A stretch of DNA of 64,000 bases from positions 1,011,380 through 1,075,379 of the forward strand of contig CAWIGJ010000003.1 of NCBI GenBank assembly GCA_963835655.1, in the 5' to 3' direction. Made by a program: the position numbers and the translations under genes. The notes beneath the pieces were generated by a model that was given only the letters and a program-made list of their open reading frames with translations, made no database searches and had not been told where the DNA came from. Source of the DNA: an uncultured Chloroflexia bacterium (GTDB lineage Bacteria; Chloroflexota; Dehalococcoidia; DSTF01; JALHUB01). Positions 2,417 to 59,757 of this stretch are shown here, in pieces (the first letter of the stretch is position 1; the number at the start of each line of letters is the position of its first letter).

Positions 2417-2618
2417 CGCCGCCTTCCTCTTCCGCTTCCTTCAGTCGCTCAATGCGGCGTCGGCGTTGCATCTCTGACGAAGTCACGATTGCGAGCGCGA
2501 GCAGTGTTCCCACCAGGAAGCCTAGCCATATCTGGCCTCGCTTAGTCAATGCCACGCTCCTTTCTGCGCCGAAGCCTGGCCGGCGCTCCGACCGCCAGCG
2601 TATTCGGAGGAACGTCAT
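2403..2618 (-). CDS. Small single-TM hypothetical protein (possible start TTG near 2549); its TM resembles CorC TM1
   Basis: The ORF overlaps the glmU stop. It contains a hydrophobic helix IWLGFLVGTLLALAIVTS similar to the WVALGLLVGTILLMALVTA helix of the downstream CorC. Confidence 0.25.
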   Translation of the reverse strand: MTFLRIRWRSERRPGFGAERSVALTKRGQIWLGFLVGTLLALAIVTSSEMQRRRRIERLKEAEEEGGGEQQ

Positions 2619-3935
2619 GGTTGACGATCGAGCCGGCCGCCGTTTGCGCCCCAGCGCCGACTTCGACCGGCGCGACGAGCATCGTGTCGCTGCCGATAAA
2701 GGCGCTGTCGCCGATGATGGTCCGGTGCTTGCTCACGCCGTCGAAGTTGCAGGTTATCGTGCCGGCGCCGATGTTCACCTCGTCGCCGACCTGCGCGTCG
2801 CCCACGTAGCTGAAGTGTCCCATCTTCGTGTTGCGCCCGATGCGCGAGTTCTTCACCTCAGCGAAGTTGCCGATGTGCACGCCGCTGCAGACGTACGCGC
2901 CGGCGCGTAGATGACTGAACGGCCCGACATCGATGTTGTCCTCCAGCGTCGACTCCTCGATGACCGACGAATCGACGCGGCAGCGAGAGCCGAGCGTAGA
3001 CTCGATAACCTGGCTGCTTGGCCCGATGACGCACTCCTCGCCGATGACCGACTTGCCGCCGAGATAGGTGTTCGGATAGACCGTTGTGTCCATGCCTATC
3101 GTCACATCGGCGTCGATATAAGTTGTTGCTGGGTCGACGATCGTAATGCCCGCCAGCATGTGACGCCGCCGGATGCGGTCTCGAAGCACCGCCTCGGCCT
3201 GTGCCAGTTGAATGCGGTCGTTGATGCCCAGCGCTTCCGCCGGGTCGCCAGCAGGCACGGCAAGGATGGTTGCGCCTTCGTCGACGCCAATGCTGACCAG
3301 GTCGGTCAGGTAGTACTCTCCGGCGGCGCTCCGCTGAATGCCCGGCAGGCGTGGCCAAAGCCATTCAGCGCGGAAGCAGTAGACGCCCGCGTTCACCTCG
3401 TTCCCCGCTAGTGTCGCCTCGTCAGCATCTGCCTCTTCGATGATTCCGCTCACTCGTCCCGAATCGTCGTGCTGTACGCGCCCCTGTCCGCGCGGATCGT
3501 CGACGAGAGCGGTCAGGAAGGTGAGGTCGGCCTTCGCCTCAAGGTGGCGTGTCATCAGAATCTTCGATTGTGCTTGCCGAGATGAGCGGGACATCCGCGT
3601 TGATGACGAGGATGTGTGCGCTGTCCTTCGCCGCGTCCATCGCCTGCGCGACGGCGTGCCCGGTGCCTAACTGCTCCGTTTGCTCCACCGGTCCGCACCG
3701 AGCCGTCGAGCGCGGCTGAGACGTGCGCCGCCTCATGCCCGACGACAACCACGTAGCGGGCCGGACGCTCGGCAGAGTCGAACGCGCTGCGGACGGCCGT
3801 TAGCACGTGCACCAGCATCGGCCGCCCGGCGAGCGAATGCAGTGCCTTCGGTTTCTTCGACCGCATGCGCTTGCCGAGGCCGGCTGCCAGAACAATCGCC
3901 GTCCAATCCTCTGCCATCAGCTCACCCTGCAACAA
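2542..3935 (-). pseudogene. glmU: glmU (bifunctional UDP-GlcNAc pyrophosphorylase / GlcN-1-P acetyltransferase) interrupted by two +1 frameshifts
   Basis: Three consecutive minus-strand ORFs in three different frames (3555-3935, 3539-3748, 2542-3594) together tile one colinear GlmU. They cover the N-terminal LAAGxGxRM motif, the EQLGTGHA motif and the C-terminal left-handed beta-helix hexapeptide repeats. Single-base indels at about 3686-3693 and 3551-3565 restore one frame. Confidence 0.75.
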
Positions 3936-3995
3936 AAAAGGCCGTCGTCACGCCCGAGACGTGCGCCAACCGGCCAACGTCGCCCGCCACAAAGC
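3936..3995 (-). terminator. Imperfect GC-rich hairpin followed by TTTTTTG immediately upstream of glmU and downstream of the small-membrane-protein operon
   Basis: The minus strand reads ggccgttggcgcacgtctcgggcgtgacgacggcc followed by ttttttgttg. Confidence 0.3.
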
Positions 3996-4196
3996 GGACA
4001 CCAGGTTTGTCGCTATTGTCGTTATCGTCCAGAGGGCCGTCTAACACCGGCTGGTGTAACCCCCGTTCATACGAATAGTATCGACGCTGTTCCGGCCCTG
4101 TCAAGATAGGGACTATTGAGGATGCGGCAGCGTCAGGAGTTGAGGCGCGACTACCGTTCCTCGCGGTTGACTACTCGCACGATGGGGACTTTCCTC

Positions 4197-4568
4197 CTAG
4201 CGCTTCCTCTGCGATTGACCGAAACGCCAGGCTGTCCGAAGGATCAGATTCTTCTCGAACGCCTCCTTCATCTGAGGGTTCTCAGCCATCTTCTTCTCGA
4301 CGAAATCCAGTCGCTTGTCGGTCAGCCAAGCTCCAAAGCACATCTGCAAAAACACAATGCACCCTAGCCCAATGGTCAGCAAGGCTGTGAACGGAACATC
4401 CTTCGAGTAGAACAGGGACACGAACCCTATGAAGAAAATGACCAGCGTGCCTATCCAGATAGAACGTACGCCTAATGAACGAAAGTGGATCCCATGCCAG
4501 AGCAGGAAAACCACAGACATAATCAGTGTAACGTCTGCCACCGCGAGAACTACAATTGCAGCCCACAT
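4197..4568 (-). CDS. Small multi-TM hypothetical protein (123 aa) in the low-GC islet
   Basis: Hydrophobic ORF with a GGGGAGG RBS upstream of the ATG. Local GC is about 50% against about 65% in the flanks. Confidence 0.55.
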   Translation of the reverse strand: MWAAIVVLAVADVTLIMSVVFLLWHGIHFRSLGVRSIWIGTLVIFFIGFVSLFYSKDVPFTALLTIGLGCIVFLQMCFGAWLTDKRLDFVEKKMAENPQMKEAFEKNLILRTAWRFGQSQRKR

Positions 4569-4584
4569 CGGCTAACCTCCCCTA

Positions 4585-4944
4585 TTATCGACCACATTTC
4601 CCCAGATCATGGCACAGTTGGTAAATGGCGGCCGCGCTTCCTATATTCGGCTCCGCTATTCTGTAGCCCATCTCGGCCCCCGCCTGCATGAGTGGCGTAA
4701 GGAAGCGGAACACGGCCATGCCAATCGCAATAGTGATGAGTCCCACCACCACGGTTGCAACAGAAAACTCAGGAAGGGTGTACGCGAGCCATGCGACGAG
4801 ACCTAGTAGGAAGCCAATTAATGTCGCCTTGTTCCGGGTGAGGCTCCGTCGGACTGCCCAGAGCACGAAGACCCACATCAAAACGTATGCGACCGCTGAC
4901 ACTGCTGCGATGCGAATTAGTACTTCAGACGTTGTTACACCCAA
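4585..4944 (-). CDS. Small multi-TM hypothetical protein (119 aa, TTG start)
   Basis: Hydrophobic ORF with a GGGAGG RBS before the TTG. It lies 17 nt upstream of the previous gene on the same strand. Confidence 0.5.
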   Translation of the reverse strand: MGVTTSEVLIRIAAVSAVAYVLMWVFVLWAVRRSLTRNKATLIGFLLGLVAWLAYTLPEFSVATVVVGLITIAIGMAVFRFLTPLMQAGAEMGYRIAEPNIGSAAAIYQLCHDLGKCGR

Positions 4945-5186
4945 CCTCCCTGGAGGAGATAATCTTCTCCGCTCGGCTCTTCTATTGGCCCCCGAATCCG
5001 ATGCACGCGTCTAGCCAACGCCGCAGTCTGGAAACTGTCTACGTGAGCACGGTTTCAGGTCAGGGCGCGTTCATGCTGCCGCCTTTTGGCTCGAGAGATC
5101 GCAGAACAAGAGAGTGACACTGGAGGCATCCACGCTAGGCTACCGAGCATTGCCGAAACGCAGACCCCGAACAGAGACCCGTCCCC

Positions 5187-5228
5187 TAGCAGGGCGGCGG
5201 GATTTGAACCCACGACCTGGCTGCAACC
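5187..5228 (-). other. tRNA 3'-half remnant (T-arm plus acceptor 3' strand, no D-arm or anticodon arm); candidate att-site relic
   Basis: The minus strand reads GGTTGCAGCCAGGTCGTGGGTTCAAATCCCGCCGCCCTGC. It folds as a T-stem GTGGG/CCCGC with a TTCAAAT loop and a 7-nt acceptor strand. No 5' half is found nearby. Confidence 0.45.
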
Positions 5229-5247
5229 TTTTCCGATTGCCCTGATG

Positions 5248-5421
5248 TCAGCAACGCCTCAACAGCCAAGCCGAACCAATCGCGAGTATGGCGACGAACC
5301 CTAGACTTATGGCAAGCGATAGCGGAGTCGCAACGCCAACAACTACCTGGAGGCCAATCATCCAGAAGCTGGCCCACGCCACGAGGAGGATCAGAAGCAC
5401 GCTTTTTCGAATCGAGAGCAT
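5248..5421 (-). CDS. Unannotated 57-aa two-TM protein (MLSIRKSVLLILLVAWASFWMIGLQVVVGVATPLSLAISLGFVAILAIGSAWLLRRC)
   Basis: Not in the ORF track because it is under 60 aa. It has a strong RBS GGAGGAGG 6 nt before the ATG, which overlaps the stop of the upstream gene. It sits in the same low-GC operon. Confidence 0.45.
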   Translation of the reverse strand: MLSIRKSVLLILLVAWASFWMIGLQVVVGVATPLSLAISLGFVAILAIGSAWLLRRC

Positions 5422-5431
5422 CTCCCTCCTC

Positions 5432-5770
5432 CTACCGAACCAGCGACGAAACGGCCTCGATCAGGATCGCTCCAACGACCATCAGAAGCACCGATCCAAC
5501 CGAAAAGAGGACAAAGAAGCGTGCGGCAAGACGCGTGGATTGCTGAATGCGCACATCCTTCTGCTCGTCCCCTGTCGTCCCAAAGCAAAAGTAGCCAACA
5601 GATGGAATCATCTTTGCCACTGCCCTGCGATATCGCTCGGGCGTAAGTGCGAGGCAAAGACGTAGTCCAGTGCGAGGAAACCATTCTGGTTCCCGGAACA
5701 TCATGATGAAGAACGCCGCCAGAGAACTGATGGCAACGAGAACCACTAGGGCTTGCGCGACTTCTTTCAA
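5432..5770 (-). CDS. Small multi-TM hypothetical protein (112 aa, TTG start)
   Basis: Hydrophobic ORF and first gene of the four-gene small-membrane-protein operon. Confidence 0.5.
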   Translation of the reverse strand: MKEVAQALVVLVAISSLAAFFIMMFREPEWFPRTGLRLCLALTPERYRRAVAKMIPSVGYFCFGTTGDEQKDVRIQQSTRLAARFFVLFSVGSVLLMVVGAILIEAVSSLVR

Positions 5771-5845
5771 GGCTCCCGCTCCCTATTCTCGGTGCGGATG
5801 AACAGGCGCAGTACTATCCACTAATCTTACCAATCTTGCTTAACT

Positions 5846-5875
5846 CGCATGAGGATAGCGCCACAATAAGATTAT
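5846..5875 (-). promoter_or_regulatory. Candidate sigma70-type promoter for the small-membrane-protein operon (TTGACA, 17 nt, TATTGT)
   Basis: The minus strand reads ttgacaaaggtctcccataatcttattgt about 80 nt upstream of the 5770 start. Confidence 0.25.
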
Positions 5876-6166
5876 GGGAGACCTTTGTCAAGGAATAAGA
5901 CTCGGAAGCAGAGCCGAGTCCTGAATGCTCGTAGTGCCACTACTATCTTAGACGTCGCCTCGAACTGTGCTTAAATGGGACATGCCTCGGACCGTTCCGC
6001 CGCCGCTCCAGCCTCCAAGACGCGTAGTGCGGGCATCCCTGGTCGCCGCAGGCGGCCTGCCCGCACCTGCTCTCTTCCTGCGCCCGGTCAGCGACAACGC
6101 ACGCTCCCGCTCACCCGCAACTCCGCCTTAGAGAGGGCTCTTTTTTTCTTGAATTCAAACAGACAA

Positions 6167-7717
6167 TCAGAGGGGAATGCTGCCGTGCTTTCGACGTGGC
6201 GTCGAGTCCGTCTTGCTGCGGAGCATCTCCAGCGCCCGCAGCACCTGCCAGCGCGTCTCTCGCGGGTCGATGACGTCATCGAGGTAACCGCGTTCCGCTG
6301 CCGCATACGGGCTCGCGAATCGCTCCTTGTACTCCTGCACCAGCTCCGTTCGCAACGCCTCTTTGTCTTCCGCCGACTGCAACTGGTTGCGGAAGATGAT
6401 GTTCACCGCCGCGTCCGGGCCCATGACGGCGATCTCGGCGCTTGGCCAGGCGAGGTTCACGTCGGCCCGCAGGTGCTTCGACCCCATAGCCAGGTAGGCG
6501 CCGCCGTACGCCTTACGTACTATGACCGTCACCTTCGGCACGCTCGCCTCGGCGTACGCGTAGACCAGCTTTGCGCCGTGAGTGATGATGCCGCCGAACT
6601 CCTGTGCCGTCCCCGGCAGGAAGCCCGGCACGTCGACCAGCGTCACGATGGGAATGTTGAACGCATCGCAGAAGCGCACGAAGCGGGCCGCCTTCCGCGA
6701 CGAGTCGATGTCGAGCACGCCTGCCAGGTATAGCGGCTGATTCGCGACGACGCCAACCGTCCTCCCTCCCATCCGGGCGAAGCCGACCACCACGTTCTGC
6801 GCGAAGTGCCGGTGCACCTCCATGAAGTCGCCGCCGTCGACGATACGGTAGACCACCTCCCGGATGTCGTACGGCTTCACCGGATCATCGGGGACGATGT
6901 TGAGCATGTCCTCGGCGCGACGGTGCGGATCGTCGCCGATCTCCAGGAAGGGCGCGTCGTCAACGTTATTCGACGGCAGGTACGACAGAAGGCGCCGGAC
7001 CTCGTGCAGACATTCCTCCTCGCCTTCAATAGCGAAGTGCGCGACACCGCTGCGGGTGGCCTGCGTCATCGCTCCGCCCAACTCTTCGTGTGTCACTTCC
7101 TCCTGCGTCACAGCCCTGATGACATCAGGGCCGGTGATGTACATCTGCGAGGTCTTCTGCACCATGAAGATGAAGTCGGTCATCGCGGGCGAATACACAG
7201 CGCCGCCAGCGCAGGGCCCCATAATGACCGATATCTGCGGCACAACGCCTGAAGCTAGCGAGTTGCGAAGAAAGATGTCGGCGTAACCAGCCAGGCTGGC
7301 AACGCCTTCCTGAATGCGGGCGCCGCCGGAGTCGTTCAGGCCGATGATGGGGCAGCCCGTCTTCACCGCCATGTCCATTACGCGGCAGATCCTCTCGCCG
7401 ACGACCTCCGACAGGGAGCCACCGAACACAGTGAAGTCCTGCGAGTAGACGAACACCTGCCGGTTGTCAATTCGTCCGTAGCCCGTCACGACGGCGTCGC
7501 CGTGGATTCGCTGACCGTCGGCGCCGAACTCGCTCGATCGGTGGACGACCAGACCCTCAAGTTCGGTGAAGCTGCCTTCGTCCAGGAGAATGTCCAACCG
7601 CTCGCGGGCCGTGAGTTTGCCTCGGCTGTGCTGCGCCTCGATGCGTCGCTGTCCGCCACCCTGACGGGCGTCTTCCTTCAGCCTGCGCAGTCGCTCCAGC
7701 TTGTCTCCAACCGACAT
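6167..7717 (-). CDS. Acyl-CoA carboxylase carboxyltransferase beta subunit (propionyl-CoA carboxylase beta / methylmalonyl-CoA carboxyltransferase family)
   Basis: 516 aa with both carboxyltransferase N and C halves. The hallmark motifs are recognisable by eye. No alpha (biotin carboxylase) subunit gene is adjacent. Confidence 0.85.
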
Positions 7718-18014: not shown

Positions 18015-19242
18015 CCTTGTGAAGACCGCCCTCGGTGCCCTACGCGACGCCTTCGACGTGTTCCGGCACACGTTCACGCTGGGCCTGCTCTCGCTGGGGC
18101 TCGCCATCGTCATCTGGTTCGTCGTCAGCGACGCCCAGAACCCGCCCAAGCGAGGCTTCTTCTCCGGCACCATCCCGGTGGAAGCAGTGAACGTGCCCCA
18201 AGGCAAGGCGCCAATCGAGGCCGCGCAGGTCCAGATCGAGATATCCGCAGATTCTGACGTCTGGAATGACCTCACCATCGGCGACTTCAAGGCAACAGTC
18301 GACCTCTCGAGCATGACCCAGGCCGAGGCCAATCTGCCGGTGCATGTTGCCGCCTTGCGAAACGATGTTGACATAATCCGCGCCGTCCCTTCGTCGGTCG
18401 ATGTCACGCTCGAGCTCACTACGACTGAGTCGAAGCCGGTGAAGATAAACACTGTCGCCGTGGCGCCTGTGGGCTACAGCGTGACGGATGAAAAGGTAAG
18501 CCCAGACACCGTGGAAGTCAGTGGGGCACAGAGTCTTGTCGCACAGACCGATGCCGTCTGGGTCGACCTCAACCTGACCGGCGTCCAGACAAGCATGGAG
18601 CGCGACTACACTCTGGTCGCCCGCGACAAGGATGGCCGCCAGGTGAACGTCAAAATCGAGCCGAATACGGCAAAGGTCGCTGTGACGGTCGTTAGGACGG
18701 AGTGGATGGAGACCTTCCCCGTCAACCCCTCGATTAGCGGCAATGTCGCTACTGGGTACTCCGTCACCGGTGTCGAGGTCGACCCTCCGTTCGTGAACGT
18801 TCGCGGCCCTGTCGACGTGCTCCAATCGATCTCGGTTCTGACGACCGATGCGATTCCCGTCGATGGGGCGGAATCGGATGTCCAGCGCAGCGTACAGCTT
18901 CGCCTTCCGCCGGGTGCCACGGTTGATGGCGGTAGCGAGGTTGTCGTCCACGTTCGCGTCGCGCCCGCGGAGGGGCAGCGCAATCTTCAGGTCGCCGTAC
19001 AGGTGATGGGCCTGAAGCAAGGCTTGGTCGCCACCCTCTCGAACGAGGATCTGGTCGCAACGCTTGCTGGCTCATTGCCGGCGCTCAATGCTCTCACCGG
19101 CGATGACGTGACTGCGACGATCGATGCTTCCAACCTGACCGTCGGCACATACTCGCTCACTCCCAAGATCAACCTGCCAGCAACCATGCAACTCATCGGC
19201 GTTTCCCCGCCTGAGATCCAGGTGACGGTCACTTCCCAATGA
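17998..19242 (+). CDS. cdaR: CdaR (YbbR-domain regulator of CdaA)
   Basis: The GTG at 17998 follows RBS GGAGGG in the ORF-track frame. N-terminal TM helix followed by repeated YbbR-like beta domains. Overlaps cdaA by 17 nt. Confidence 0.7.
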   Translation: MLSPGDLVKTALGALRDAFDVFRHTFTLGLLSLGLAIVIWFVVSDAQNPPKRGFFSGTIPVEAVNVPQGKAPIEAAQVQIEISADSDVWNDLTIGDFKATVDLSSMTQAEANLPVHVAALRNDVDIIRAVPSSVDVTLELTTTESKPVKINTVAVAPVGYSVTDEKVSPDTVEVSGAQSLVAQTDAVWVDLNLTGVQTSMERDYTLVARDKDGRQVNVKIEPNTAKVAVTVVRTEWMETFPVNPSISGNVATGYSVTGVEVDPPFVNVRGPVDVLQSISVLTTDAIPVDGAESDVQRSVQLRLPPGATVDGGSEVVVHVRVAPAEGQRNLQVAVQVMGLKQGLVATLSNEDLVATLAGSLPALNALTGDDVTATIDASNLTVGTYSLTPKINLPATMQLIGVSPPEIQVTVTSQ

Positions 19243-20614
19243 GCTCCCGCGCGCGTTCAGGGACGAAGCCAGCCGGTCAGCAAGCATCATCCGAAGCCGG
19301 ATACCCTATCGTAGCCCTCGTTGGCCGGCCGAACGTTGGGAAGTCTGCTCTGTTCAACCGCATAATCGGGGGACGCAAGGCCCTCGTCGAAGAAGCGGCT
19401 GGGACGACTCGTGATCGCGTTTACGGCGACATCGAATGGCGAGGAAAGCGCATTCGGCTCGTCGACACCGGCGGCCTGCTCATGGACGGCTCGTTGCCGT
19501 ACAGTGAACTCGTCCGAGCCCAGGTGGAGGTTGCGGCCGACGAAGCCGAAGTAATCCTCTTCGTGGTCGATGGTAAGGAGGGCCTGACCGCCGGGGACCG
19601 CGATGTGGCCGATCACTTGCGACGCGTCGACAAGCCTGTCATCCTCGTCGCCAACAAGACCGAGAGCGAGAGCCGTCGCGAGTCGGCCGTCGAGTTCTAC
19701 GAGCTTGGCCTCGGCGAGCCGTTTGCCGTCAGCGCCTTGCACGGCATGGGCGTCGCTGACCTGATGGACATGCTGGCTGACTTGCTTCCAGAGTCGCTAG
19801 CGCCGGAAGCGCTCGACAACCCTTTCAATCGCCATCGTCGGACGGCCGAACGTCGGCAAGTCGATGCTGACGAATGCTATCCTCGGCGAGGAGCGTGTCA
19901 TCGTCAGCGAGACGCCCGGCACGACGCGCGACAGCGTTGACACTCTCTTCGAGTTTGATGGGCATAAGCTCACCCTTATCGATACGGCAGGCATCCGTCG
20001 AAGAGGCCGTATTGAGGTTGGCGTGGAGAAGCACTCGGTGCTGCGAGCGCAGGATGCGGCGCAGCGGGCCGACGTGGCGCTCGTGCTTATGGACGCCGGC
20101 GAAGGGCTCGCGGCGCAGGACGCGCACATTGCCGGGCTTATCGTGGACAGCTTCGTCGGAATGGTGCTGGTAGCCAATAAGTGGGACTTGGCGCCGCCTG
20201 AGCCTTCCTATCGAAAGGAATTCGAACGTCTCCTTCGCTACCGCCTGCGCTTTGCGCCCTGGGCGCCGCTTTGCTTCGTCTCCGCGAAGGAGCGCACCGG
20301 CGTCGACGAACTGCTGAAGGAGGCCCTGCGCGTCGGTGAGGAGCGACAGAAGCGATTGCCGACAGCTGAGGTGAACGCCGTCGTACAGCGGGCGATCGGC
20401 GAGCGAAGCCCGCCCTTCGACGCAGGGCCGCAAGCTGAAAGTGCTCTACGTGACGCAGGCTCAAACAGCGCCGCCGACTTTCGTCTTCTTCGTCAACGAT
20501 GCCTCCTTGCTCCACTTCTCCTATCGTCGCTATCTTGAGAACCGGTTGCGGAAGGCTTACGGCTTCGAAGGCACGCCGCTGAAGCTCATCTTCAAGAGCA
20601 GAGGGGAAAAGTAG
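19239..20614 (+). pseudogene. der: GTPase Der/EngA (tandem GTPase domains plus KH-like C-terminus) carrying two frameshifts
   Basis: Domain 1 is in the 19239 frame with G1 GRPNVGKS. Domain 2 with its G1 (IAIVGRPNVGKSMLTNAILGEE) continues in the 19864 frame. The C-terminal RKLKVLYVTQAQTAPPTFVFFVNDASLLHFSYRRYLENRLRKAYGFEGTPLKLIFKSRGEK lies in a third frame and ends at 20614. The shifts are near 19821-19835 and 20415-20435. Confidence 0.75.
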
Positions 20615-21247
20615 ATGGCCTGGCAGCTTATCGTCGCCGCCATCATCGGCTATCTGCTCGGCTCCATTCCCGGCGGCTACGTCATGGGGCGCCTGACCCG
20701 CGGCATCGACGTACGTGACTACGGCAGCGGCAAAACGGGCGCCACCAACGCGATGCGGACACTCAGTCTTTGGGCTGTTCTCGGCGTGCTGGTGATCGAC
20801 ATCGGCAAGGCAGCGGCGGCGGTTTCCATCGCCCGCGTTCTCTCAGATAGCGCATGGGCGCAGGCGTTGGCGGGCATAGGTGCGTTTGCCGGACACGTCT
20901 GGCCGCTGTACCTTGGCTTCCGCGGTGGACGGGGTGTCTCCGCTGCTTACGGCTCCCTCCTTGCGATGAACCCACTAGCCAGCCTGGCGCTGCTTCCCAT
21001 CGCCTTGCTGATTATCGCTGTTACCCGCTACATGTCACTGATGTCGATTTCGATGGCGCCGATTGCCGCCGCGCTCTTCCTGGCGCTGGCAATAGCAGGC
21101 GTGTTGCCTTATGCCTACTCTGTCTACGGCATGGTCGTTGCGGCGATGATCGTCATCCTTCACTACGACAACATCCGCCGCCTGCTTTCAGGCACCGAGC
21201 GGAAGATCGGTCAGAAGGAGCTGCAACGGACCGGAGGCCGTTGGTGA
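20615..21247 (+). CDS. plsY: Glycerol-3-phosphate acyltransferase PlsY
   Basis: 210-aa polytopic protein with PlsY motifs (GSGNPGATN-like GSGKTGATN). Confidence 0.85.
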   Translation: MAWQLIVAAIIGYLLGSIPGGYVMGRLTRGIDVRDYGSGKTGATNAMRTLSLWAVLGVLVIDIGKAAAAVSIARVLSDSAWAQALAGIGAFAGHVWPLYLGFRGGRGVSAAYGSLLAMNPLASLALLPIALLIIAVTRYMSLMSISMAPIAAALFLALAIAGVLPYAYSVYGMVVAAMIVILHYDNIRRLLSGTERKIGQKELQRTGGRW

Positions 21248-21768
21248 AAAGCGTAGCTGTCGTCGGCTCCTCAAGCTGGGGCACCGTCCTCGCGGTCCTC
21301 TTCGCCCGCAACGGCTTGCCGGTCCGCCTCTGTGCCTATGACGAGGCCGATGCGGAAGCGCTTCGTCGTGGCGGCGAAAACGCGCGACTTGAGCCTGGCC
21401 TGCGTTTCCCTCCTGTACCGCGCCTTGGAATCGCGGCTGGCGCCCAACCGCTGACCCTCCTCGGCCTCGCGGGCGTCGGCGATCTCATGGCCACCTGCTA
21501 CAGCCCCCTCAGTCGCAACCATCGCGTCGGCATCGAGCTGGCGAAAGGACGCTCGCTCGACGAAGCTCTTGCCTCACTCGGCCAGGTCGCTGAGGGCGTG
21601 GCGACGACCGTTGCAGCCCGTGGACTGGCTCTTCGCTACCGGGTCGAGATGCCTATCATACAGATGACCTATCAGGTGCTCTTCGAAGGGCTGGACCCGC
21701 GCCGCGCCGTCGCCGAATTGATGCTTCGGGCGCCCCGTCACGAACTCCACGGAGTCGGCCGGAAGTGA
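21244..21768 (+). pseudogene. gpsA: gpsA (NAD(P)H-dependent glycerol-3-phosphate dehydrogenase) with an in-frame internal deletion
   Basis: The N-terminal Rossmann fragment (VAVVGSSSWGTVLAVLFARNG…LEPGLRFPPVP) is fused directly to the C-terminal fragment (RLGIAAGAQPLTLLGLAGVGDLMATC…VEMPI…). About 150 central residues, including the KGIE catalytic region, are absent. The ORF is 175 aa against about 330 expected. Confidence 0.7.
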
Positions 21769-22229
21769 TCACGGTCCGTCCCCTGTGGCCCAACGATATA
21801 CCTCAGTGTGAAGCCATCCTGCGCGGCCTGCCAGAGTGGTTCGGCTTCGAAGCCGCTCTCCTCCAGTTCGTCGATGACCTTGCGCGTCTGCCCGGTCTCG
21901 TGGCTGTCGAAGGCGACGACGTTCTCGGTTTCCTCGCCTTGCACGACCACAGCGCCGAATCGTCCGAGATCCACGTTCTCGCTGTCCACCGCGGTCGTCA
22001 CCGCCAGGGAATCGGCCGCGCCCTGCTGGAAGGCGCGGAAGCCGGCCTGCTCGCCAGGGGCGTCAAGCTGCTTCAAGTGAAGACGCTTGGCCCGTCGAGC
22101 GATGATGCCAACTACGCCAAGACACGCGCCTTCTACCTGGCGATGGGCTTTTCCCCGCTGGAGGAGACTTCAGCTTTCTGGGGCCAACAGCAGCCCACTT
22201 TGCTCATGGTGAAACGCCTTTGCCCTTGA
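21765..22229 (+). CDS. GNAT-family N-acetyltransferase
   Basis: Acetyl-CoA binding motif RGRHRQGIGRALL. GTG start overlapping the gpsA stop. Confidence 0.75.
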   Translation: MITVRPLWPNDIPQCEAILRGLPEWFGFEAALLQFVDDLARLPGLVAVEGDDVLGFLALHDHSAESSEIHVLAVHRGRHRQGIGRALLEGAEAGLLARGVKLLQVKTLGPSSDDANYAKTRAFYLAMGFSPLEETSAFWGQQQPTLLMVKRLCP

Positions 22230-22321
22230 ATCACCTCCATTCTCTGCTGCCCCTTGAGCGCTTGCGCCCGTCATTGACAAGCCGTTTTGGCGGTGCCTAG
22301 ACTGAATTCAAGGGGAACCCA

Positions 22322-23242
22322 ATGGCATTGCAGGACTATCTGGATGAGTTGAAGAACCCCTCGCGGCCGCTCTTGGCTTCGAGGCTCAGCGAAATCTCTT
22401 CGCTGTCGGCTGTTGATGCGTCTGCGTTGGCCGATATCTGGCCGCAAATAGAAGTCGCGCGGCGCCGCCAGGTCCTGCGCCGCCTGCTCGAGCTTGCTGA
22501 AGACAACGTCGAGCTCGACTTCGACCGCGTCTCAATCCTCGCTCTTGACGACAACGATGCCGAGGTGCGCGCTCTCGCCATCCAGGGTCTGTGGGAGCAT
22601 GAGGACCGTGACCTGATCACGCCTTTGATCAACATCCTGAAGGATGACCCGTCGGCGACCGTTCGCGCTGAAGCCGCCGGCGCTCTTGGCCATTTTGTCC
22701 TGCGGGCAGAGTTCCAGCAGCTGAATCCAATGGACAGCCGTCGCATTACAGACGCATTGCGAGCGACGATCGACAATTCCGATGAGTCAGCCGAGGTCCG
22801 TGGCCGGGCACTTGAGTCCATCGGTGCTCTCAGTACGCCCTGGGTTCGCAGCAGCATCGAGAACGCCTATCGCAGTGGCGACTGGCGTCTTCGCATCAGT
22901 GCCGTTCACGCGATGGGCCGAAATTGTGACCGCAATTGGATCTCGCTCCTTTCCAAGGAGCTGGAGAGCGACGTTCCAGAGATGCGCTTCGAGGCCGCCA
23001 CCGCCTGCGGTGCTTGCTGCGACGAGAATGTGGTACCTCTCCTGAAACCCCTGCTCGAGGACGAAGACGCGGAGGTACAAGAAGCCGCGATAGCCGCCCT
23101 CGGTGAAATCGGTGGCGATGCGGCGAAACGTGCGCTCCGAGAGATCGACCGCCACCCGGAGGTGCGCGTCCGCGAAGCCGTGGCTGCCGCCCTCGAAACA
23201 ATCGAGTTCAACGAGGACCCGCTGGGGTTCCATCTGCCGTAG
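22322..23242 (+). CDS. HEAT-repeat (PBS-lyase type) protein
   Basis: Repeated E/D-x-V-R-x-x-A-x-x-A-L-G units throughout. Confidence 0.7.
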   Translation: MALQDYLDELKNPSRPLLASRLSEISSLSAVDASALADIWPQIEVARRRQVLRRLLELAEDNVELDFDRVSILALDDNDAEVRALAIQGLWEHEDRDLITPLINILKDDPSATVRAEAAGALGHFVLRAEFQQLNPMDSRRITDALRATIDNSDESAEVRGRALESIGALSTPWVRSSIENAYRSGDWRLRISAVHAMGRNCDRNWISLLSKELESDVPEMRFEAATACGACCDENVVPLLKPLLEDEDAEVQEAAIAALGEIGGDAAKRALREIDRHPEVRVREAVAAALETIEFNEDPLGFHLP

Positions 23243-38252: not shown

Positions 38253-39332
38253 CTACTCCGTCAACTGGATGAAGTGGATGAGGCTGGCTGCATCGTAGAC
38301 GCCTTTGACGGCGCCCGTCGTTATCTCCGACTTGACGAACCGCCCCTTCACCTCGCAGTGATTCCCTGTGCAGCCGCCGTCACCGTAGCCCTCCAGGAAG
38401 AAGAGCGCGAATCCGTTGACGGTGACGTAGCAGCGCCCTCCGCAAAGGTCGTCGACGATGGGAACAATGACCACGCGCAGGCTGGGCAGGCTGTCTTCAA
38501 CAAATGGGTTGCACTGCTGCACGATAGAATAGCCGCCGGCCTCGTTTGCCGTGAACACCTTGTCGAACGTATCGCAAGACGTGCTGGTGTTGTTAATACG
38601 GTAGTCGACGCCTGTCCTCGTTGGACCCGTCATGTTGCCCGGCTCCGTTAGGCACTCTCCATCGTGGCATTCCGGAGCCGTATCCACGCAACCTAAAGCA
38701 ACGGCTGGCGCTGAGCAGACGGTAGTCTGAGAGCCGTGCTCGATCTCCTGTCGATAGGTACTCGATCCCGTTCCGTCGATCGCCATGCCCCCGAAGTCGC
38801 CGTTGTCTCCTCCCGTGGAGTCATACTTGAGCGTTACCTCACCGCCGACGCCGGCGTCGTCGATTTCACTCTGGAGGACGGCCCACGGGACGACTCCGTC
38901 GCTGCCCCCTGGCGAAGTCTTTATCGCTGTCGCGGTGGCGGTCAAGTCCGCTGAATCAACGCCGATAACCGGGGCAAGCTGGTAATCATGTTGCCGTTGA
39001 AGCCTGACAGTGATTTGTGGATTGGGATGGCCGGACGATTGCTGCTCTACGCTGATGGACTCAATCTGGTCCGGCTGAACACCATTCTTCGCTGCCCATT
39101 GCGTGGCGGACGCGACGGCGGCCTCTTGGTTGGGCAGATCAATGGCGCCGGCCAGCGCCATCGCATCCGCTGCGTTCTGCAGGTCTCGCTTATCATGAGC
39201 AAGCGACCCGATATCGATAGCAAGGGCGCTGAAGCCGATCAGGCCCACAATCATCGCCCCCATAAGAACGACTATCTGTCCGTCTTCACTCCCTCTGAGA
39301 CCCACAAGAATCCGGGACAAGGTACGCATCAC
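38253..39332 (-). CDS. TadG-like pilus assembly protein (TadE/G-like N-terminus plus a large C-terminal domain)
   Basis: N-terminal TM helix followed by GSLAHDKRDLQNAADAMALAGA, typical of the TadE/G family. Confidence 0.6.
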   Translation of the reverse strand: MMRTLSRILVGLRGSEDGQIVVLMGAMIVGLIGFSALAIDIGSLAHDKRDLQNAADAMALAGAIDLPNQEAAVASATQWAAKNGVQPDQIESISVEQQSSGHPNPQITVRLQRQHDYQLAPVIGVDSADLTATATAIKTSPGGSDGVVPWAVLQSEIDDAGVGGEVTLKYDSTGGDNGDFGGMAIDGTGSSTYRQEIEHGSQTTVCSAPAVALGCVDTAPECHDGECLTEPGNMTGPTRTGVDYRINNTSTSCDTFDKVFTANEAGGYSIVQQCNPFVEDSLPSLRVVIVPIVDDLCGGRCYVTVNGFALFFLEGYGDGGCTGNHCEVKGRFVKSEITTGAVKGVYDAASLIHFIQLTE

Positions 39333-39333
39333 A

Positions 39334-39761
39334 CTACTCCAATCGCATGTTGGAGGATGACGAAAGGTCGAAGTAGCCCGGGAAACTCCCGCCCGAAACC
39401 AGCGTGAAGACGCCCGCCAGTGGCGTAATCAGGTTGTATCGATAGTTTGCGCTGACGACGACCGAATTCCCCGGTGCCTGCCCACTTGGATACGTGACAG
39501 AGACCGACGCTAGGTCCAAGCCGGTCGCCGTGTCGCACACACGGCGAACAACCGTCCCCGACTGGGCGCCGGAACAACCAGTCCATGTTCCCGCCGGGTT
39601 GCCAACCACAGCAAAGCGCGCTCCCTCACGGGTAGCGTTCGTCAACTGTATGTAGGACTTGAATCCCATCCCGAAGTCGACGATGCTGAGCGCGAGCAGC
39701 AAGAGGATTGGCAGCACCACGACAAACTCGACCAAACTCTGACTTCGTTCTGAAGACAACC
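39334..39761 (-). CDS. TadE-like protein
   Basis: Start MFQRLSSERSQSLVEFVVVLPILLLLAL. The long ORF-track N-extension is judged spurious. Confidence 0.6.
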
Positions 39762-40020
39762 TTTGAAACATCTCCTCCACTCCCCAGTCTGCTGTTCTCT
39801 CAGCGAATGCAAAAAGCCACCGGCGCGGCCGCCAGTGGCTGACGTGCTCCCCCTGAACCAGCTTTCGGCGGCCCGGCTGCCATGGTCGATTCAAGATCGA
39901 ACTTTAGGCCCGAAGCTTTGCGTCCCGTCCTTTCGAACGGTTTGCCGTTTGTCGAGCAGAACCCAACAACGGGTTCTACTCTTTCAATCGGATGATTGCG
40001 GGAAATCTGCTGCAGGTTGC

Positions 40021-49624: not shown

Positions 49625-49701
49625 GGGCCGCTAGCTCAATTTGGCAGAGCAGCTGACTCTTAATCAGCCGGTTCCAGGTTCGAGTCCTGGGCGGCCTACC
49701 A
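49625..49701 (+). tRNA. tRNA-Lys (anticodon CTT)
   Basis: Cloverleaf folds as GGGCCGC/GCGGCCT acceptor, GCTC/GAGC D-stem, GCTGA/TCAGC anticodon stem with loop CTCTTAA, and a CCAGG/CCTGG T-stem with a TTCGAGT loop. CCA is encoded. Confidence 0.9.
49655..49701 (+). repeat. attL core: the 3' 47 nt of tRNA-Lys, identical to 62920-62966
   Basis: Exact 47/47 match: gactcttaatcagccggttccaggttcgagtcctgggcggcctacca. Confidence 0.85.
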
Positions 49702-49714
49702 GAAAACGAATCTA

Positions 49715-49740
49715 GAAAGGCCCCCTTCGAGGGGCCTTTC
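49715..49740. terminator. Perfect hairpin GAAAGGCCCC cttcga GGGGCCTTTC, likely a bidirectional terminator between tRNA-Lys and the first element gene
   Basis: 10-bp perfect stem. T-rich flank on the minus strand (TTTCTAGATTCGTTTTCTGG). Confidence 0.45.
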
Positions 49741-49758
49741 TGCTTACCTTCCTTAGCA

Positions 49759-49778
49759 TTTGCTAACATTTTGCTAAC
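49759..49778 (+). repeat. Two direct copies of TTTGCTAAC (plus an overlapping TTAGCA/TGCTAA inverted repeat) just inside attL; candidate integrase arm sites
   Basis: ccTTAGCAtTTGCTAACatTTTGCTAACgc. The same 9-mer pair occurs at 62768-62789. Confidence 0.5.
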
Positions 49779-50169
49779 GCTCGTGTGGGCGGTAGTGTCC
49801 CACTAGAAACGCCAAGTGCGCGGTACTCATCAGGAAGGCGGTCGCCTTCGGTCCGACCGACGTTGAACCTGTGGCCTCCCTACGGTGCATAAAGAAGAGA
49901 AGATTGGTCGTTAGGAGAGCGAGGGCGGCTCTCTCTATATCCGTTTTGTGCGAAGCGTCCGCCGCGACGACACAAGCCGCTATATAGTCAAAGGCCTTGT
50001 CCGAATGAAGTTCAGGCTTAGAGACGTTCAGTTGTTTTGCTAACTGACGGAGGGTCTCAAGCACAATCTCATTTCCAGTATTTGGGTCTGTGTCAGCATC
50101 TTCCACTTGCTTGAGCCAAGCGACAGCCTCGGCTTCCCCCAATAGATCCATTTCGCTGTTCTCATCCAT
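49774..50169 (-). CDS. Hypothetical protein (131 aa), element cargo
   Basis: ORF only. No recognisable motif. Confidence 0.4.
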   Translation of the reverse strand: MDENSEMDLLGEAEAVAWLKQVEDADTDPNTGNEIVLETLRQLAKQLNVSKPELHSDKAFDYIAACVVAADASHKTDIERAALALLTTNLLFFMHRREATGSTSVGPKATAFLMSTAHLAFLVGHYRPHER

Positions 50170-50173
50170 CTTG

Positions 50174-51316
50174 TCACCTACTGAACACTAGCGCCGCCAC
50201 CCGCTCTGCGGCGTCCTCTTGCAAGCCGGGGATAACGGCGCTGTAGACGTCGAGGGTAAAGGCGACGCTGCTATGTCCGAGCCGTTCACTGACCACTTTC
50301 GGGTGAACGCCAGCGGCCAACGCAAGGCTGGCGTGACCGTGGCGCAAATCATGCAGCCTTATCGTGGGCAGGCCAGCCGACTTCACGAGGAGCTGGAAAT
50401 GGCCCGAGAAGGACTCGGGGTTTACGGGGCCGCCGTCCGGCGCCGTGAATACCAGCGCCTCGGCGTCGGGCGCCCCTAGTCCAAGAGTCATGCGATCTTC
50501 CAGCACCCGCTTGCGGTGAGCCCTGAGAACGGCGATCGTGGTCGTGTCTAGGCTGATCTTGCGGTTGCCCCGGCCTGTCTTCGGCTCGCTCGAAAGGATT
50601 TGCCCCTTCACGCTGATAAGCGTCTGATTGACGCTGAGGTGGCCAGCCTTGAGGTCTAGGTCACACCACCTTGCCCCCAGTGCTTCGCCGCGTCTCATGC
50701 CCGTGGTGGCGAGTAGGAACAGGGGCTGGTAGTAGTAGTCACCTTCTATATGTCGGAGGAATTGGCCCAGTTGGTCAGCGTTCCATGTCCGAAGGGTATG
50801 GTTACGCTGCTGCTTTGGTGGGCTTGCAGCAGCGGCCACGTTCCTAGTCACGTCACCCCATTTGAGGGCTTCGCCCAATGCGCGGTGCAACGTCGCGTGG
50901 CAATAGCGCACCGTTCGGGGCGATAAACCGCCCTTGCCCTGGCGCCGGCCGCTTTCCAGGAGTTCAGCGTAAAGGCTATTCAACTGGCCGGGGGTGAGTT
51001 TCTGCAACGGCGTGCTACCTATTCGCGGCTTGATATAGCTTTCGACTATCAGCCGGTAGCCCTCGAGCGTTGACGCGCGGACGCTGGCCCGCGCCTGATC
51101 CAGCCATCGCGTCAGGAACATGGCCAGCGTTTCCCGTGAGGGCTCTACAAGGTTGCCCGTGGCGTAGCGCTGAAGCGTCTCCGTTAGCCCGGCCTCGCAC
51201 TCTTTCCGCGTACGAAATCCGCCCTTAGTCCGCTGCCGACGCCGGCCCTTTTCGTCGCGGCCAACGTCGAGCGTATAGCTCCAGGTCCTGCCCCTCTTGC
51301 CGACGTGTCCTTTCAT
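50174..51316 (-). CDS. Tyrosine-type phage integrase
   Basis: Catalytic box R…HDLRH…LGHSSVAFTLDVY. Adjacent to attL and tRNA. Start probably the internal Met (MKGHVGKRG) next to the upstream gene stop. Confidence 0.85.
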   Translation of the reverse strand: MKGHVGKRGRTWSYTLDVGRDEKGRRRQRTKGGFRTRKECEAGLTETLQRYATGNLVEPSRETLAMFLTRWLDQARASVRASTLEGYRLIVESYIKPRIGSTPLQKLTPGQLNSLYAELLESGRRQGKGGLSPRTVRYCHATLHRALGEALKWGDVTRNVAAAASPPKQQRNHTLRTWNADQLGQFLRHIEGDYYYQPLFLLATTGMRRGEALGARWCDLDLKAGHLSVNQTLISVKGQILSSEPKTGRGNRKISLDTTTIAVLRAHRKRVLEDRMTLGLGAPDAEALVFTAPDGGPVNPESFSGHFQLLVKSAGLPTIRLHDLRHGHASLALAAGVHPKVVSERLGHSSVAFTLDVYSAVIPGLQEDAAERVAALVFSR

Positions 51317-52221
51317 GATTGCCCTCCTCTGTGTTCTCGCGCCCATGCGCGATCCCGACAGCGCTTGTCATGGTACTCTTGCAGCCCGTGGGCGACGCCG
51401 AAGAGACGCCCGCAACCTTTGCAGAGCTGCCATCGTTTACCGGCCGCTAGGTCTTCATAGAGTTGCAGCCACATGGCAGTTTCTAAGTCGCCACAGCTCG
51501 ATCCACCTTTGATTCTGCCACCATCAATGGAGAGCCCTAGCCGAACGCTCTCCAACCGTTCCCAGAACACCGACGCCAAGCGAACCTGCTTCTCCTCTAG
51601 GTCCGGATCGTCGTCGAACTCCTCTGCGTCTCGTACCTGCTTCACGAGCCGAACGGCCTCAGAGAACTCGATGGCTTGTATAAGCAAGCGCCAGAGAATG
51701 ATCCTGACTTTGCCGTCCGCGTCCTCCAGATCGGCGAAGATGGGGCGCGGCGGTGATTGCCGAGTGTAGATAATGCCGCCCGGTAGAGGTCGCGGAAGGA
51801 CTGGCCCCCAATTGACGACGAACGCTCGCGCCTCGCGCTGGATCGCCCCGTTGAACGAGGCGTATATGGCAAGGGTTTCCGCAGAATCTTCGCCGCTCGG
51901 TGCCGACCTTTGCCCTGCGTCCTGCGCATGCTTTCCTAGCGCGGCGAAGTCGCTGTAGGGCTGCGGCGTCAGTCTGAGCGGCTCATACCCCTCGCGGCTG
52001 AAGTCCACGAGCGCGCCGTCAAACTGTAACGCGACGGGGTCGCCGCCGACGCGCCAGTGCTGCCTGTTTCCCTTCGGCCACCAAAAGACCGTGAAAGTGT
52101 CGTCGCGTTTCTGCATTTCGGCCCCTATCTCGGCGGAAATCGGCTTGGCCTCGTCTATTATTGCACGGTACCATACCAGTGTCAAGCGATTAGAAGGGGA
52201 TAGGAGCAGAAAAAATGACAC
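51313..52221 (-). CDS. Hypothetical protein with a C-terminal CGNR-like zinc-finger (CxxC…F…C-R-x-R…HR)
   Basis: C-terminus RWQLCKGCGRLFGVAHGLQEYHDKRCRDRAWAREHR resembles the zf-CGNR signature. The N-terminal ~35 aa may be an over-extension. Confidence 0.4.
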   Translation of the reverse strand: MSFFLLLSPSNRLTLVWYRAIIDEAKPISAEIGAEMQKRDDTFTVFWWPKGNRQHWRVGGDPVALQFDGALVDFSREGYEPLRLTPQPYSDFAALGKHAQDAGQRSAPSGEDSAETLAIYASFNGAIQREARAFVVNWGPVLPRPLPGGIIYTRQSPPRPIFADLEDADGKVRIILWRLLIQAIEFSEAVRLVKQVRDAEEFDDDPDLEEKQVRLASVFWERLESVRLGLSIDGGRIKGGSSCGDLETAMWLQLYEDLAAGKRWQLCKGCGRLFGVAHGLQEYHDKRCRDRAWAREHRGGQS

Positions 52222-52439
52222 AGAAGAATGCGATGGCGGTAGACGTTCGCCGGCTGCCGCCGACGGTCACCGTTCCCGAAGCGGGTAGCTTGCTGGGAAT
52301 CAGTCGCGGGTCCGCTTACGAGGCCGCCCGTACGGGGCAAATCCCGGCCCTGAGAATCGGGGCGCGCCTCGTGGTGCCTACGGCGCAGTTGCTCCGGCTT
52401 CTAGAGGGTGTGCCCACCGAGCCGAAGCCGGGCGCCTGA
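52215..52439 (+). CDS. Excisionase/AlpA-family HTH DNA-binding protein
   Basis: VTVPEAGSLLGISRGSAYEAARTGQIPALRIGARLVVPTAQLLRLLEG matches the excisionase-family HTH pattern. Divergent from the integrase. Confidence 0.65.
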   Translation: MTQKNAMAVDVRRLPPTVTVPEAGSLLGISRGSAYEAARTGQIPALRIGARLVVPTAQLLRLLEGVPTEPKPGA

Positions 52440-52549
52440 GCCGACAAGGGCCGTGAGCACGTTGACTGAACTCCGTCCTGCGCGCGCTTTGTGCCCGCGC
52501 TGCCAATTTCGGTTCGAGCTTCTTTCGGAAGTCCGGGTAGAGGATAGCG

Positions 52550-53527
52550 TTGCCTGCCCCAAGTGCCATGTCGTGGTTTGCCCCGAACGGGAGCCGCTCG
52601 ACCAAAGTTGGTGGGCTTGGGCGAATAGCAGAGGGGCAGACCGTGAATCTTGACGACATTCTCCCGCTTCTCGATTCGCCCGCCGGCGATCCTTTCGGCG
52701 GGAAGCCGGTTGCGCCGGACCGTCACACGTGGTTTTTCTGCCCCGTTCATGCGGATGGCAGCAAGCACGGGCGCCGCTCGGCAACCTTTCACCCCCGCTA
52801 TGGCCTGACCTGTTTCGCCGGCTGCGAAAGGCGCGACATCATTGCCGCGCTCCAAAAGCGCGGCGGCGTTCATCCCGCCCATACACCGAGCGACAGCAGC
52901 CCCGCGCATCGCTCGAGGTCAAAAGCGATCCCTGGCCGGATCGTCGCCCGCTACCCGTACCCCGACGAAAGGGGCCAGTTGCTGTATGAGGCCCTACGCA
53001 AGGAGACGGCTGACGGCAAGACATTCCTTTTGCGGCGGCCTAACGGCATGGGCGGCTGGATTTGGAACATTGACGGCATGCGCCGTGTCCTCTATCGGCT
53101 TCCCGAACTCCTGGCGGCTGACCCTAGCGCCTTTGTTTTCATCTGTGAGGGCGAGAAGCGCGTTGATGCGCTTGCTCGGCTCGGCCTCACGGCGACAACA
53201 AACGTAGGCGGCGCCGGGAAGTGGAAACCCGCCTGTAACGACTATCTTCGCCGCCGGCGCGTCGTGATCCTTCCCGACAACGATCCGCCAGGAGCCGAAC
53301 ACGCTGAGCAAGTGGCGCGCTCACTTATGGGCGTCGCCGCTGAAGTCCGCGTGATCGTGCTGCCCGGCCTGCCTTTCAAGGGCGACATCATTAACTGGCT
53401 TGCTGCTGGCGGCAACCGCGAAATACTCCTAGCCCTGGCAGAGCGCCCGCCGACGGAGCGGCCATCTTCCGCCGACTTCCCGAAAGCCGTCCGGGTGAGC
53501 GTCCTTAACGCCGCAGGAGTTGCCTGA
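52550..53527 (+). CDS. Phage/plasmid primase (CHC2 zinc finger plus Toprim)
   Basis: CPVHADGSKHGRRSATFHPRYGLTCFAGC (CHC2). Toprim glutamate in ICEGEKRVDAL and DxD in ILPDNDPPG. Confidence 0.75.
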   Translation: MPAPSAMSWFAPNGSRSTKVGGLGRIAEGQTVNLDDILPLLDSPAGDPFGGKPVAPDRHTWFFCPVHADGSKHGRRSATFHPRYGLTCFAGCERRDIIAALQKRGGVHPAHTPSDSSPAHRSRSKAIPGRIVARYPYPDERGQLLYEALRKETADGKTFLLRRPNGMGGWIWNIDGMRRVLYRLPELLAADPSAFVFICEGEKRVDALARLGLTATTNVGGAGKWKPACNDYLRRRRVVILPDNDPPGAEHAEQVARSLMGVAAEVRVIVLPGLPFKGDIINWLAAGGNREILLALAERPPTERPSSADFPKAVRVSVLNAAGVA

Positions 53528-54750: not shown

Positions 54751-54811
54751 TTGTTAAGACTCAAGGACGCAAAACACCCTGTGCAAGCACGAGGACAAAT
54801 ATAATTTGTCC
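54701..54811 (+). promoter_or_regulatory. Origin-like region: two 17-bp direct repeats GGACGCAAAACACCCTG (54701-54717 and 54765-54781) followed by the AT-rich palindrome GGACAAATATAATTTGTCC (54793-54811)
   Basis: Read directly. Located at the 3' end of, and just after, the helicase-like gene. Confidence 0.5.
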
Positions 54812-55091
54812 TTTTAGAACGTCGGCGGCTACTGGGGGTACTTTGCGCCCCTGGCCTACTGCCTGCCAACAAGCGCGTGTGCTACCCGCTCCGGCCACAA
54901 AATCACGCGGCGACAGCCGCCCAAGCGGTAGGCTCAGTGGATGCGGCAGAACGAAGGCCCTGCCATGACTGCCACCAAAGAGGACTCGGCCCGTGAGCAA
55001 AGCGTTAGCAGGCAAGCGGGATCGAATCTGGAAAAGGCCCAGCAGCGGATTGGTAGTCAGCGGGATTACACACTAACGGAGTCTGACTAGG

Positions 55092-57000: not shown

Positions 57001-57028
57001 CACTGCCGGGGTAGGAAAGGAAACGGAA

Positions 57029-57391: not shown

Positions 57392-57394
57392 ACC

Positions 57395-59748: not shown

Positions 59749-59757
59749 CACGGGGCA

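Follow-up and report, generated by a model that had tools for sequence, protein, structure and literature searches.

A 492-nt in-frame gap in the gpsA gene of an uncultured Dehalococcoidia assembly, probably a read or consensus artefact beside frameshifted essential genes

The 64-kb stretch of DNA analysed here, which we call the window, contains the genes der, plsY and gpsA followed by a gene for a GNAT acetyltransferase (Table 1). The plsY product matched the Pfam family G3P_acyltransf over the entire profile (positions 1-164 of 164, E 2.7e-43) and aligned to the products of relatives at 84-88% identity with no gaps. The plsY/gpsA and gpsA/GNAT boundaries each consist of a 4-nt GTGA stop/start overlap, and the GNAT gene is translationally coupled to gpsA, its own GTG start overlapping the gpsA stop. 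The transcription unit der-plsY-gpsA-GNAT probably ends at the promoter-like site detected downstream of the GNAT gene.

Table 1. Features of the der-plsY-gpsA locus and of the glmU-like gene, in positions of the window
Feature	Position	Strand	Remarks
glmU-like gene	2545..3947	-	split over three frames; frame changes near 3695 and 3560
der (engA), double-GTPase gene	19239..20614	+	split over three frames; Pfam MMR_HSR1 domains in two separate ORFs
plsY, acyl-phosphate:glycerol-3-phosphate acyltransferase gene	20615..21247	+	intact, 210 aa
gpsA remnant, whole short ORF	21244-21768	+	GTG start, 174 aa + stop
gpsA remnant, N-terminal piece, residues 1-57	21244..21414	+	Pfam NAD_Gly3P_dh_N positions 2-54/158
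gpsA deletion junction GTACCG (V58 P59)	21415..21420	+	492 nt missing vs relatives
gpsA remnant, C-terminal piece, residues 60-174 + stop	21421..21768	+	Pfam NAD_Gly3P_dh_C positions 45-141/142; also GPD_NAD_C_bact
GNAT acetyltransferase gene	21765..22229	+	154 aa, intact; Pfam Acetyltransf_7, _1, _10
promoter-like site 5' of HEAT-repeat gene (22322-23242)	22274..22303	+	consensus scan, 10/12 matches; pattern match only

The gene order OTCase-cdaA-ybbR-der-plsY-gpsA ... HEAT-NUDIX-GNAT-SDR matched that of the relative L001, which makes this the syntenic orthologous locus. The order der-plsY-gpsA was found in L001, L004, L005, L086, L089 and others, and the earlier note on this DNA was right to call the arrangement conserved. 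The order gpsA-then-GNAT was common to the window, L087 and L100, the GNAT gene being 80-82% identical to those of the latter two (tblastn), while other relatives, such as L001 and L002, have SAF/GD_AH genes on the opposite strand at the place of the GNAT gene. By position and by sequence, the window gene is orthologous to GpsA (EC 1.1.1.94), an enzyme whose structure has been solved from Coxiella burnetii (3K96), Thermotoga maritima (1Z82), Leishmania (1EVY) and human (1X0V/6E8Y). It is the ordinary gpsA orthologue of a member of the Dehalococcoidia (Chloroflexota), on a metagenome-assembled contig of 1.44 Mb. A GC3-based gene-calling heuristic favoured antisense ORFs over gpsA; these ORFs (21271-21522, 21574-21750 and 21738-22076) only mirror the conserved sense frame, had no other support and were rejected.

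The relatives used for comparison were MAGs and metagenome contigs of uncultured Dehalococcoidia (Chloroflexota), taken from the GTDB species representatives (which do not include the genome of the window), a metagenome contig collection (JGI) and the NCBI assemblies. In all of the close Dehalococcoidia relatives (about 25), GpsA has about 338 aa and a two-domain layout (about 330-350 aa). In the short GpsA of the window, the Pfam domains NAD_Gly3P_dh_N and NAD_Gly3P_dh_C covered residues 4-56 and 60-156, respectively, with nothing between them. The spacing between the PGLRFP and RLG codons was reduced from 519 nt in ten close relatives to 27 nt in the window (the 521 nt of L001 stem from a frameshift of its own). 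Compared with its relatives, the gpsA gene of the window is thus missing 492 nt (164 codons), in frame, and affine-gap pairwise alignment to L001 displayed the loss as a single clean gap. The earlier note had described a clean in-frame internal deletion of about 150 codons, leaving a product of 175 aa instead of about 330, and had held that it could not be a homopolymer error. The Pfam layout and the codon spacing bear out a clean, internal, in-frame loss, and we agree that no homopolymer error would produce it; the size is to be corrected to 164 codons, and the shortened product to 174 aa plus stop, against about 338 aa in relatives.

In the GpsA of L087 (336 aa), the missing part corresponds to residues 58-223, minus the two junction residues. 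The junction reads R54 F55 P56 P57 / V58 P59 / R60 L61 G62 (...RFPP-VP-RLGIAAG...); its hexanucleotide GTACCG resembles neither flank convincingly, and it is ambiguous where the V-P dipeptide comes from. Both breakpoints lie off the domain boundaries, at position 54 of 158 of the Pfam N-domain and position 45 of 142 of the C-domain. When the sequences of eight relatives were compared at an offset of 492 nt around both breakpoints, no microhomology or direct repeat longer than 2-3 nt was found, no relevant repeat that could explain the gap was found in the window, and the deleted segment was not found relocated elsewhere in the 64 kb. The collapsed assembly offered as one explanation in the earlier note is not supported as it was put, since repeat or microhomology is absent at the breakpoints in relatives and repeat or k-mer collapse is therefore unlikely to be the mechanism; another kind of assembly or read artefact is still the likeliest, because two frameshifts are seen in der and two more in glmU.

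To the left of the junction, the sequence is similar to that which comes before RLG in full-length GpsA. This G(E/D)NA(R/K)...RLG resemblance was considered as a recombination site and rejected: LEPGLRFPP in the window clearly derives from the N-terminal copy, and the two copies are spaced by 162 codons rather than 164. The same resemblance gave rise to spurious "95% coverage" matches (P0020, P0027 and similar ones, and L096), which proved to be ordinary fragments or full-length genes.

We then mapped the retained and the lost residues through the GpsA of L087 (the closest relative with the gene order of the window), which was aligned to 3K96 (E 5e-70), 1Z82, 1EVY and human GPD1 (6E8Y/1X0V). 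The N-terminal piece extends from beta1 over the G-x-G-x-x-G motif (GSSSWG), helix A and beta2 to the loop that ends in RFPP. The dinucleotide-binding motif (VVGSSSWGT, residues 6-14) is present and aligns, via L087, with GAGSWGT of 3K96 and 1Z82. Of the 158 positions of PF01210, the Rossmann domain for NAD(P) binding at the N-terminus, only 2-54 are represented, the strands after beta2 being absent by comparison with L087, 3K96 and 1Z82. Deleted residues 58-223 map to strands beta3-beta6 of the Rossmann fold and also to the KGLE lysine, the SGPN loop and the LKN motif. Both the KG(L/I)E lysine (Lys120 of human GPD1, Lys106 of L087) and the catalytic Lys-Asn pair of the (A/S)LKN motif (Lys204/Asn205 of human GPD1, Lys191/Asn192 of L087) fall within this segment, which upholds the earlier claim that the catalytic and substrate-binding core is lost. 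Of the helical substrate-binding domain, the C-terminal piece keeps the later part, with the GDLMATC...SRN motif; the segment GVGDLMATCYSPLSRNH (residues ~77-93) is kept and aligns via L087 to D260, T264 and R269 of 6E8Y. Set against complete GpsA (PF01210 + PF07479), the window protein is without 164 residues, among them two thirds of the Rossmann domain and the first third of the C-domain.

In human GPD1, DHAP is bound by Lys120 and Arg269, and Lys204 polarises the DHAP carbonyl for hydride transfer (PMC11148179). The 174-aa product is predicted from its sequence to be unable to act as a dehydrogenase, i.e. it could not reduce DHAP, because the Rossmann core and the equivalents of Lys120 and Lys204/Asn205 are missing. 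AlphaFold, run on the single sequence of the remnant, gave a model of low confidence (mean pLDDT of 42), which was uninformative.

The short form was sought in large sequence collections. A word-indexed search of 5.8 billion clusters placed the exact short protein alone in its own 90% cluster, from a single contig of 1,435,755 bp, and no other short protein joining the N- and C-terminal pieces was among the matches listed; this search gave no match longer than 305 aa and appears to be length-limited. When 1.84 billion representatives were scanned exhaustively, the best 150 matches were nearly all proteins of 320-357 aa that aligned in two separate stretches, query residues ~56-170 aligning at ~220-335 of the match, and none of these 150 aligned in a single stretch spanning the gpsA junction. 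No DNA encoding PGLRFPPVPRLGIAA, searched as a degenerate pattern for the junction peptide, was found in the metagenome collection, and scans of GTDB and JGI contigs did not find the junction either. L087, which has the same gpsA-GNAT context as the window, carries a full-length gpsA.

Sporadic internally deleted gpsA ORFs do occur in public metagenomes, encoding 240 aa (P0154), 254 aa (P0179), 257 aa (P0205), 229 aa (P0221) and 304 aa (P0032). Like the window gene, they have lost the centre of the gene in frame, including the LKN motif, but they differ from it in breakpoints and lineages and form no family with the window protein. The two that were traced, P0179 and P0154, lie on short-read contigs of 2-4 kb, in one sample each.

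The identity of the remnant to relatives was 77-89% for the N-terminal piece and 80-88% for the C-terminal piece, in the same range as that of plsY (84-88%) and der (79-88%). The dN/dS ratio (NG86) of the remnant against ten relatives was 0.05-0.11, compared with a mean of 0.125 among the relatives, but the nearest relative is already at a dS of about 1, which leaves this comparison low power for a recent deletion. Because relaxed selection was not seen in the remnant, the gpsA lesion would be either non-biological or of very recent date.

The other genes of the window served to evaluate how reliable the consensus is around gpsA. Der is intact in six relatives, and their proteins of 456-465 aa mapped to window frames 3, then 1, then 2. 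DNA alignments revealed two uncompensated +1 frameshifts in der, at ~19797-19812 (CCC/TTT context) and at ~20413 (CCC/TT context), with one extra base each; given these frameshifts, the second GTPase domain of Der would be without its P-loop. The glmU-like gene is broken in a comparable way, with Hexapep/LbH in ORF 2545-3666, the NTP_transf_3 N-terminus in ORF 3558-3947 and the middle piece in a third frame. Der and GlmU are essential in the bacteria that have been studied, and for this reason the four frameshifts in der and glmU are almost certainly errors. All of the other housekeeping genes that were checked in the window were intact.

The frameshifts occur in local pairs. Those of der lie 0.8-1.6 kb upstream of gpsA, the gpsA gap following the second by about 1 kb, and glmU lies 16 kb from the der-plsY-gpsA operon. 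Both error clusters border probable variable segments (a low-GC island adjoins glmU, and the GNAT or SAF/GD_AH alternatives adjoin gpsA), and variable segments and errors may be linked.

We consider it somewhat more likely than not that the gap is an artefact of a long-read MAG, made at the level of the reads or of the consensus. A read- or consensus-level error would have been fixed into a single-assembler long-read consensus, and the gene of the living population would probably be full and encode a GpsA of about 338 aa. We infer that the assembly is a long-read one and that the deletion and the frameshifts share a technical origin. An artefact is favoured over a real allele because the gap is unique to this assembly, shows no sign of age, would create an auxotrophy and lies beside errors that cannot be real. 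According to passages of the Trycycler paper (Wick et al., PMC8442456), long-read assemblies of bacteria made with a single assembler contain local spikes or clusters of errors as well as medium-to-large-scale errors. Like the assemblies described there, the contig of the window is megabase-sized and has paired indel frameshifts in essential genes with a larger lesion nearby, but a clean deletion of 492 nt exceeds the errors explicitly quantified in those passages, and the long-read platform is in our case deduced.

Several observations run counter to an artefact. A clean gap of 492 nt is atypical, long-read consensus errors usually being of 1-2 nt. The breakpoints show no repeat or microhomology in relatives, which makes repeat or k-mer collapse unlikely. 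The exact reading frame and both GTGA overlaps are kept, which would happen by chance in 1 case in 3 yet is what a real allele that is tolerated would show. The gap and the frameshift closest to it are about 1 kb apart, with clean plsY in between, and the dN/dS ratio is weak evidence against a recent real deletion, dS being about 1 even for the nearest relative.

The explanation that survives best after an artefact is a true and very recent loss-of-function allele, in which an illegitimate, non-homologous deletion of 492 nt would have arisen in the sampled clone or population. This is the true deletion allele that the earlier note had listed, and we regard it as a live rival that is possible, if less to be expected than an error. 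The substrate of PlsY is G3P. The allele would leave the cell with no G3P from DHAP, and PlsY would be fed via glycerol (GlpK), glycerophosphodiesters (GlpQ/UgpQ) or G3P uptake, while the in-frame deletion would leave translation of the coupled downstream GNAT gene undisturbed. The clean in-frame gap with its overlapping start/stop signals kept, the absence of a repeat that could make an assembler collapse the region, and the two-residue junction of ambiguous origin, which fits illegitimate recombination, are all consistent with such an allele, and a fresh deletion would likewise be without relaxed selection.

Loss of gpsA is also known to be viable: gpsA knockouts of Staphylococcus aureus, Escherichia coli and Bacillus subtilis are glycerol/G3P auxotrophs that live if glycerol or G3P is supplied (PMC3840577), in line with the dependence of PlsY on G3P that the earlier note had pointed out. 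The phenotype predicted for the window, if the deletion is real, is that of these null mutants (S. aureus PDJ28, E. coli and B. subtilis), with PlsY starved in the absence of glycerol or G3P; the mutants, however, are laboratory strains with verified genotypes, whereas the window deletion is known from assembled sequence. Against a real allele, the short form occurs on one contig only among some 15 billion proteins and is absent from every relative, and a high-frequency null of a core gene of lipid synthesis is rare a priori. The gene also adjoins an essential der with two frameshifts that cannot be real, which makes the local sequence untrustworthy. Finally, the earlier note had proposed a search for another gpsA or for glpK, glpT or glpQ; no second gpsA was found in the 64-kb window, and a Pfam scan found no glpK, glpD, glpT, glpQ or ugpQ, i.e. 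none of these salvage genes, among its ~60 ORFs.

It is very improbable that der, plsY and gpsA are turning into pseudogenes in a redundant operon with a second functional copy elsewhere. The two frameshifts and the deletion, three lesions of one operon that all fall within 1.6 kb, would fit such decay, but the locus is the syntenic orthologous one, as in L001, plsY is intact, no second gpsA was found in the window, and glmU, 16 kb off, has the same paired frameshifts, which points to a technical cause. We know of no duplicate der genes.

The deliberately minimised gene suggested in the earlier note, i.e. a functional GpsA-derived protein made of the first beta-alpha-beta unit and the C-terminal helices and selected for a non-catalytic role such as PlsY binding or regulation, is hardly credible: the preserved frame, the intact conserved residues of both remnants, the low dN/dS ratio and the translational coupling kept on both sides would suit it, but the low ratio is fully explained by recency of the lesion, the breakpoints ignore domain boundaries, no second example of the N(1-57)+C(224-338) architecture was found in either protein library, the other deleted ORFs (P0154, P0179, P0205, P0221 and P0032) have other breakpoints, and an orthologous short form is absent from the sister genomes. 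At the very most, a non-catalytic role of the 174-aa remnant is a faint prospect.

With an artefact as the preferred reading, the practical use of the finding is that of a quality flag for gene-breaking errors in the essential genes der and glmU on this contig. Because the contig carries such errors, metabolic reconstructions should not score G3P synthesis, Der or GlmU as absent. The biological weight of the finding is small, as gpsA, its operon context and the consequences of its loss are already well known, and either reading, artefact or allele, belongs to a known category. G3P dependence is usually expected in host-associated bacteria. A real high-frequency deletion, which we hold to be unlikely, would describe a free-living Dehalococcoidia of sediment or soil type without GpsA activity, with G3P drawn from environmental glycerol, G3P or glycerophosphodiesters or from an unrecognised G3P-forming enzyme; if true, this would be a natural G3P auxotroph outside host-associated bacteria. 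Should reads show that the deletion is real, it would amount to a modest case of natural glycerol/G3P auxotrophy in an uncultured lineage of the Chloroflexota.

The two +1 frameshifts of der, which lies ahead of plsY and gpsA in the window, are uncompensated, and the P-loop of the second GTPase domain of Der is left without an in-frame start codon; they are almost certainly consensus errors. The second frameshift pair of the window lies in another essential gene, the glmU-like gene, whose frame switches near 3695 and 3560.

Broken genes were also found in the closest syntenic NCBI relative (L001; GCA_936418645.1, CAKYXP010000004.1), where frameshifts split cdaA (955-1778) into 98 + 122 aa and gpsA (5001-6040) into 127 + 227 aa. 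Other public MAGs of the clade therefore also hold broken gpsA calls. In five gpsA ORFs from public metagenome data (P0154, P0179, P0205, P0221, and P0032), an internal stretch of 26 to ~110 residues that includes the catalytic LKN motif is deleted in frame, with different breakpoints in each. The two internally deleted gpsA ORFs that were traced (L163 970-1734 and L164 1160-1882) are located on 2-4-kb contigs, from one sample each. Chimeric assembly or rare alleles may account for these ORFs. The GpsA-like representative P0172 (214 aa) begins with MTGVQTCALPI, a translated Illumina adapter sequence, and contains a C-domain segment in duplicate; its contig is therefore probably chimeric.

Comparison of the gpsA junction with the full-length protein showed that GENARLEPGLRFPPVPRLG (window 21373-21423) is similar at both ends to GDNAKAGFITRGLAEIARLG (residues ~207-226 of full-length GpsA), and BLAST therefore carries C-domain alignments over the junction. 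Ordinary GpsA fragments (P0020, P0027, and L096) are given a misleading "95% query coverage".

The segment directly 3' of gpsA differs between close relatives. A co-directional GNAT gene overlaps the gpsA stop in the window (21765-22229), L087 (1147-1281) and L100 (209-664), whereas a convergent pair of SAF and GD_AH (altronate/galactarate-dehydratase-like) genes is present in L001 (6048-7474) and L002. The gpsA gene of L087 is full-length, and its downstream arrangement is the same as that of the window.

Positions of other features in the window
Feature	Position	Strand	Remarks
glmU-like gene	2545-3947	-	NTP-transferase + hexapeptide-repeat domains; over three frames
Low-GC island	3950-6170		GC 0.55 vs ~0.62; AT skew +0.13
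tRNA 3'-end-like fragment	5187-5216	-	Inside low-GC island; single occurrence in window
der (engA)	19239-20614	+	Three reading frames; +1 frameshifts at ~19,797-19,812 and ~20,413
c-di-GMP-I-GGC riboswitch	39863-39956	-	Rfam RF03167, 63.7 bits; gathering score 59
Prophage-like region	49625-63068		Flanked by the two tRNA genes below
tRNA-Lys(CTT)	49625-49701		One border of prophage-like region
Tyrosine integrase	50177-51367	-	In prophage-like region
Large terminase	55618-56997		In prophage-like region
Tyrosine integrase, second	60232-61140	+	In prophage-like region
tRNA-Leu(TAG)	62984-63068		Other border of prophage-like region

Numerous ORFs of the prophage-like region had no Pfam match. The large terminase ORF and the next ORF (56927-57388) overlap by 71 nt in different frames, which may reflect another frameshift.

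The low-GC island beside the glmU-like gene contains only small ORFs, all on the minus strand, and their sequences resemble those of small hydrophobic, possibly membrane, proteins. Searches of the island gave no Pfam match, no Rfam match and no tandem repeats. An integrated element may have left this island behind. Immediately downstream of the c-di-GMP-I-GGC riboswitch are minus-strand genes for TadE/Tad-like pilins (39337-39903 and 38256-39428).
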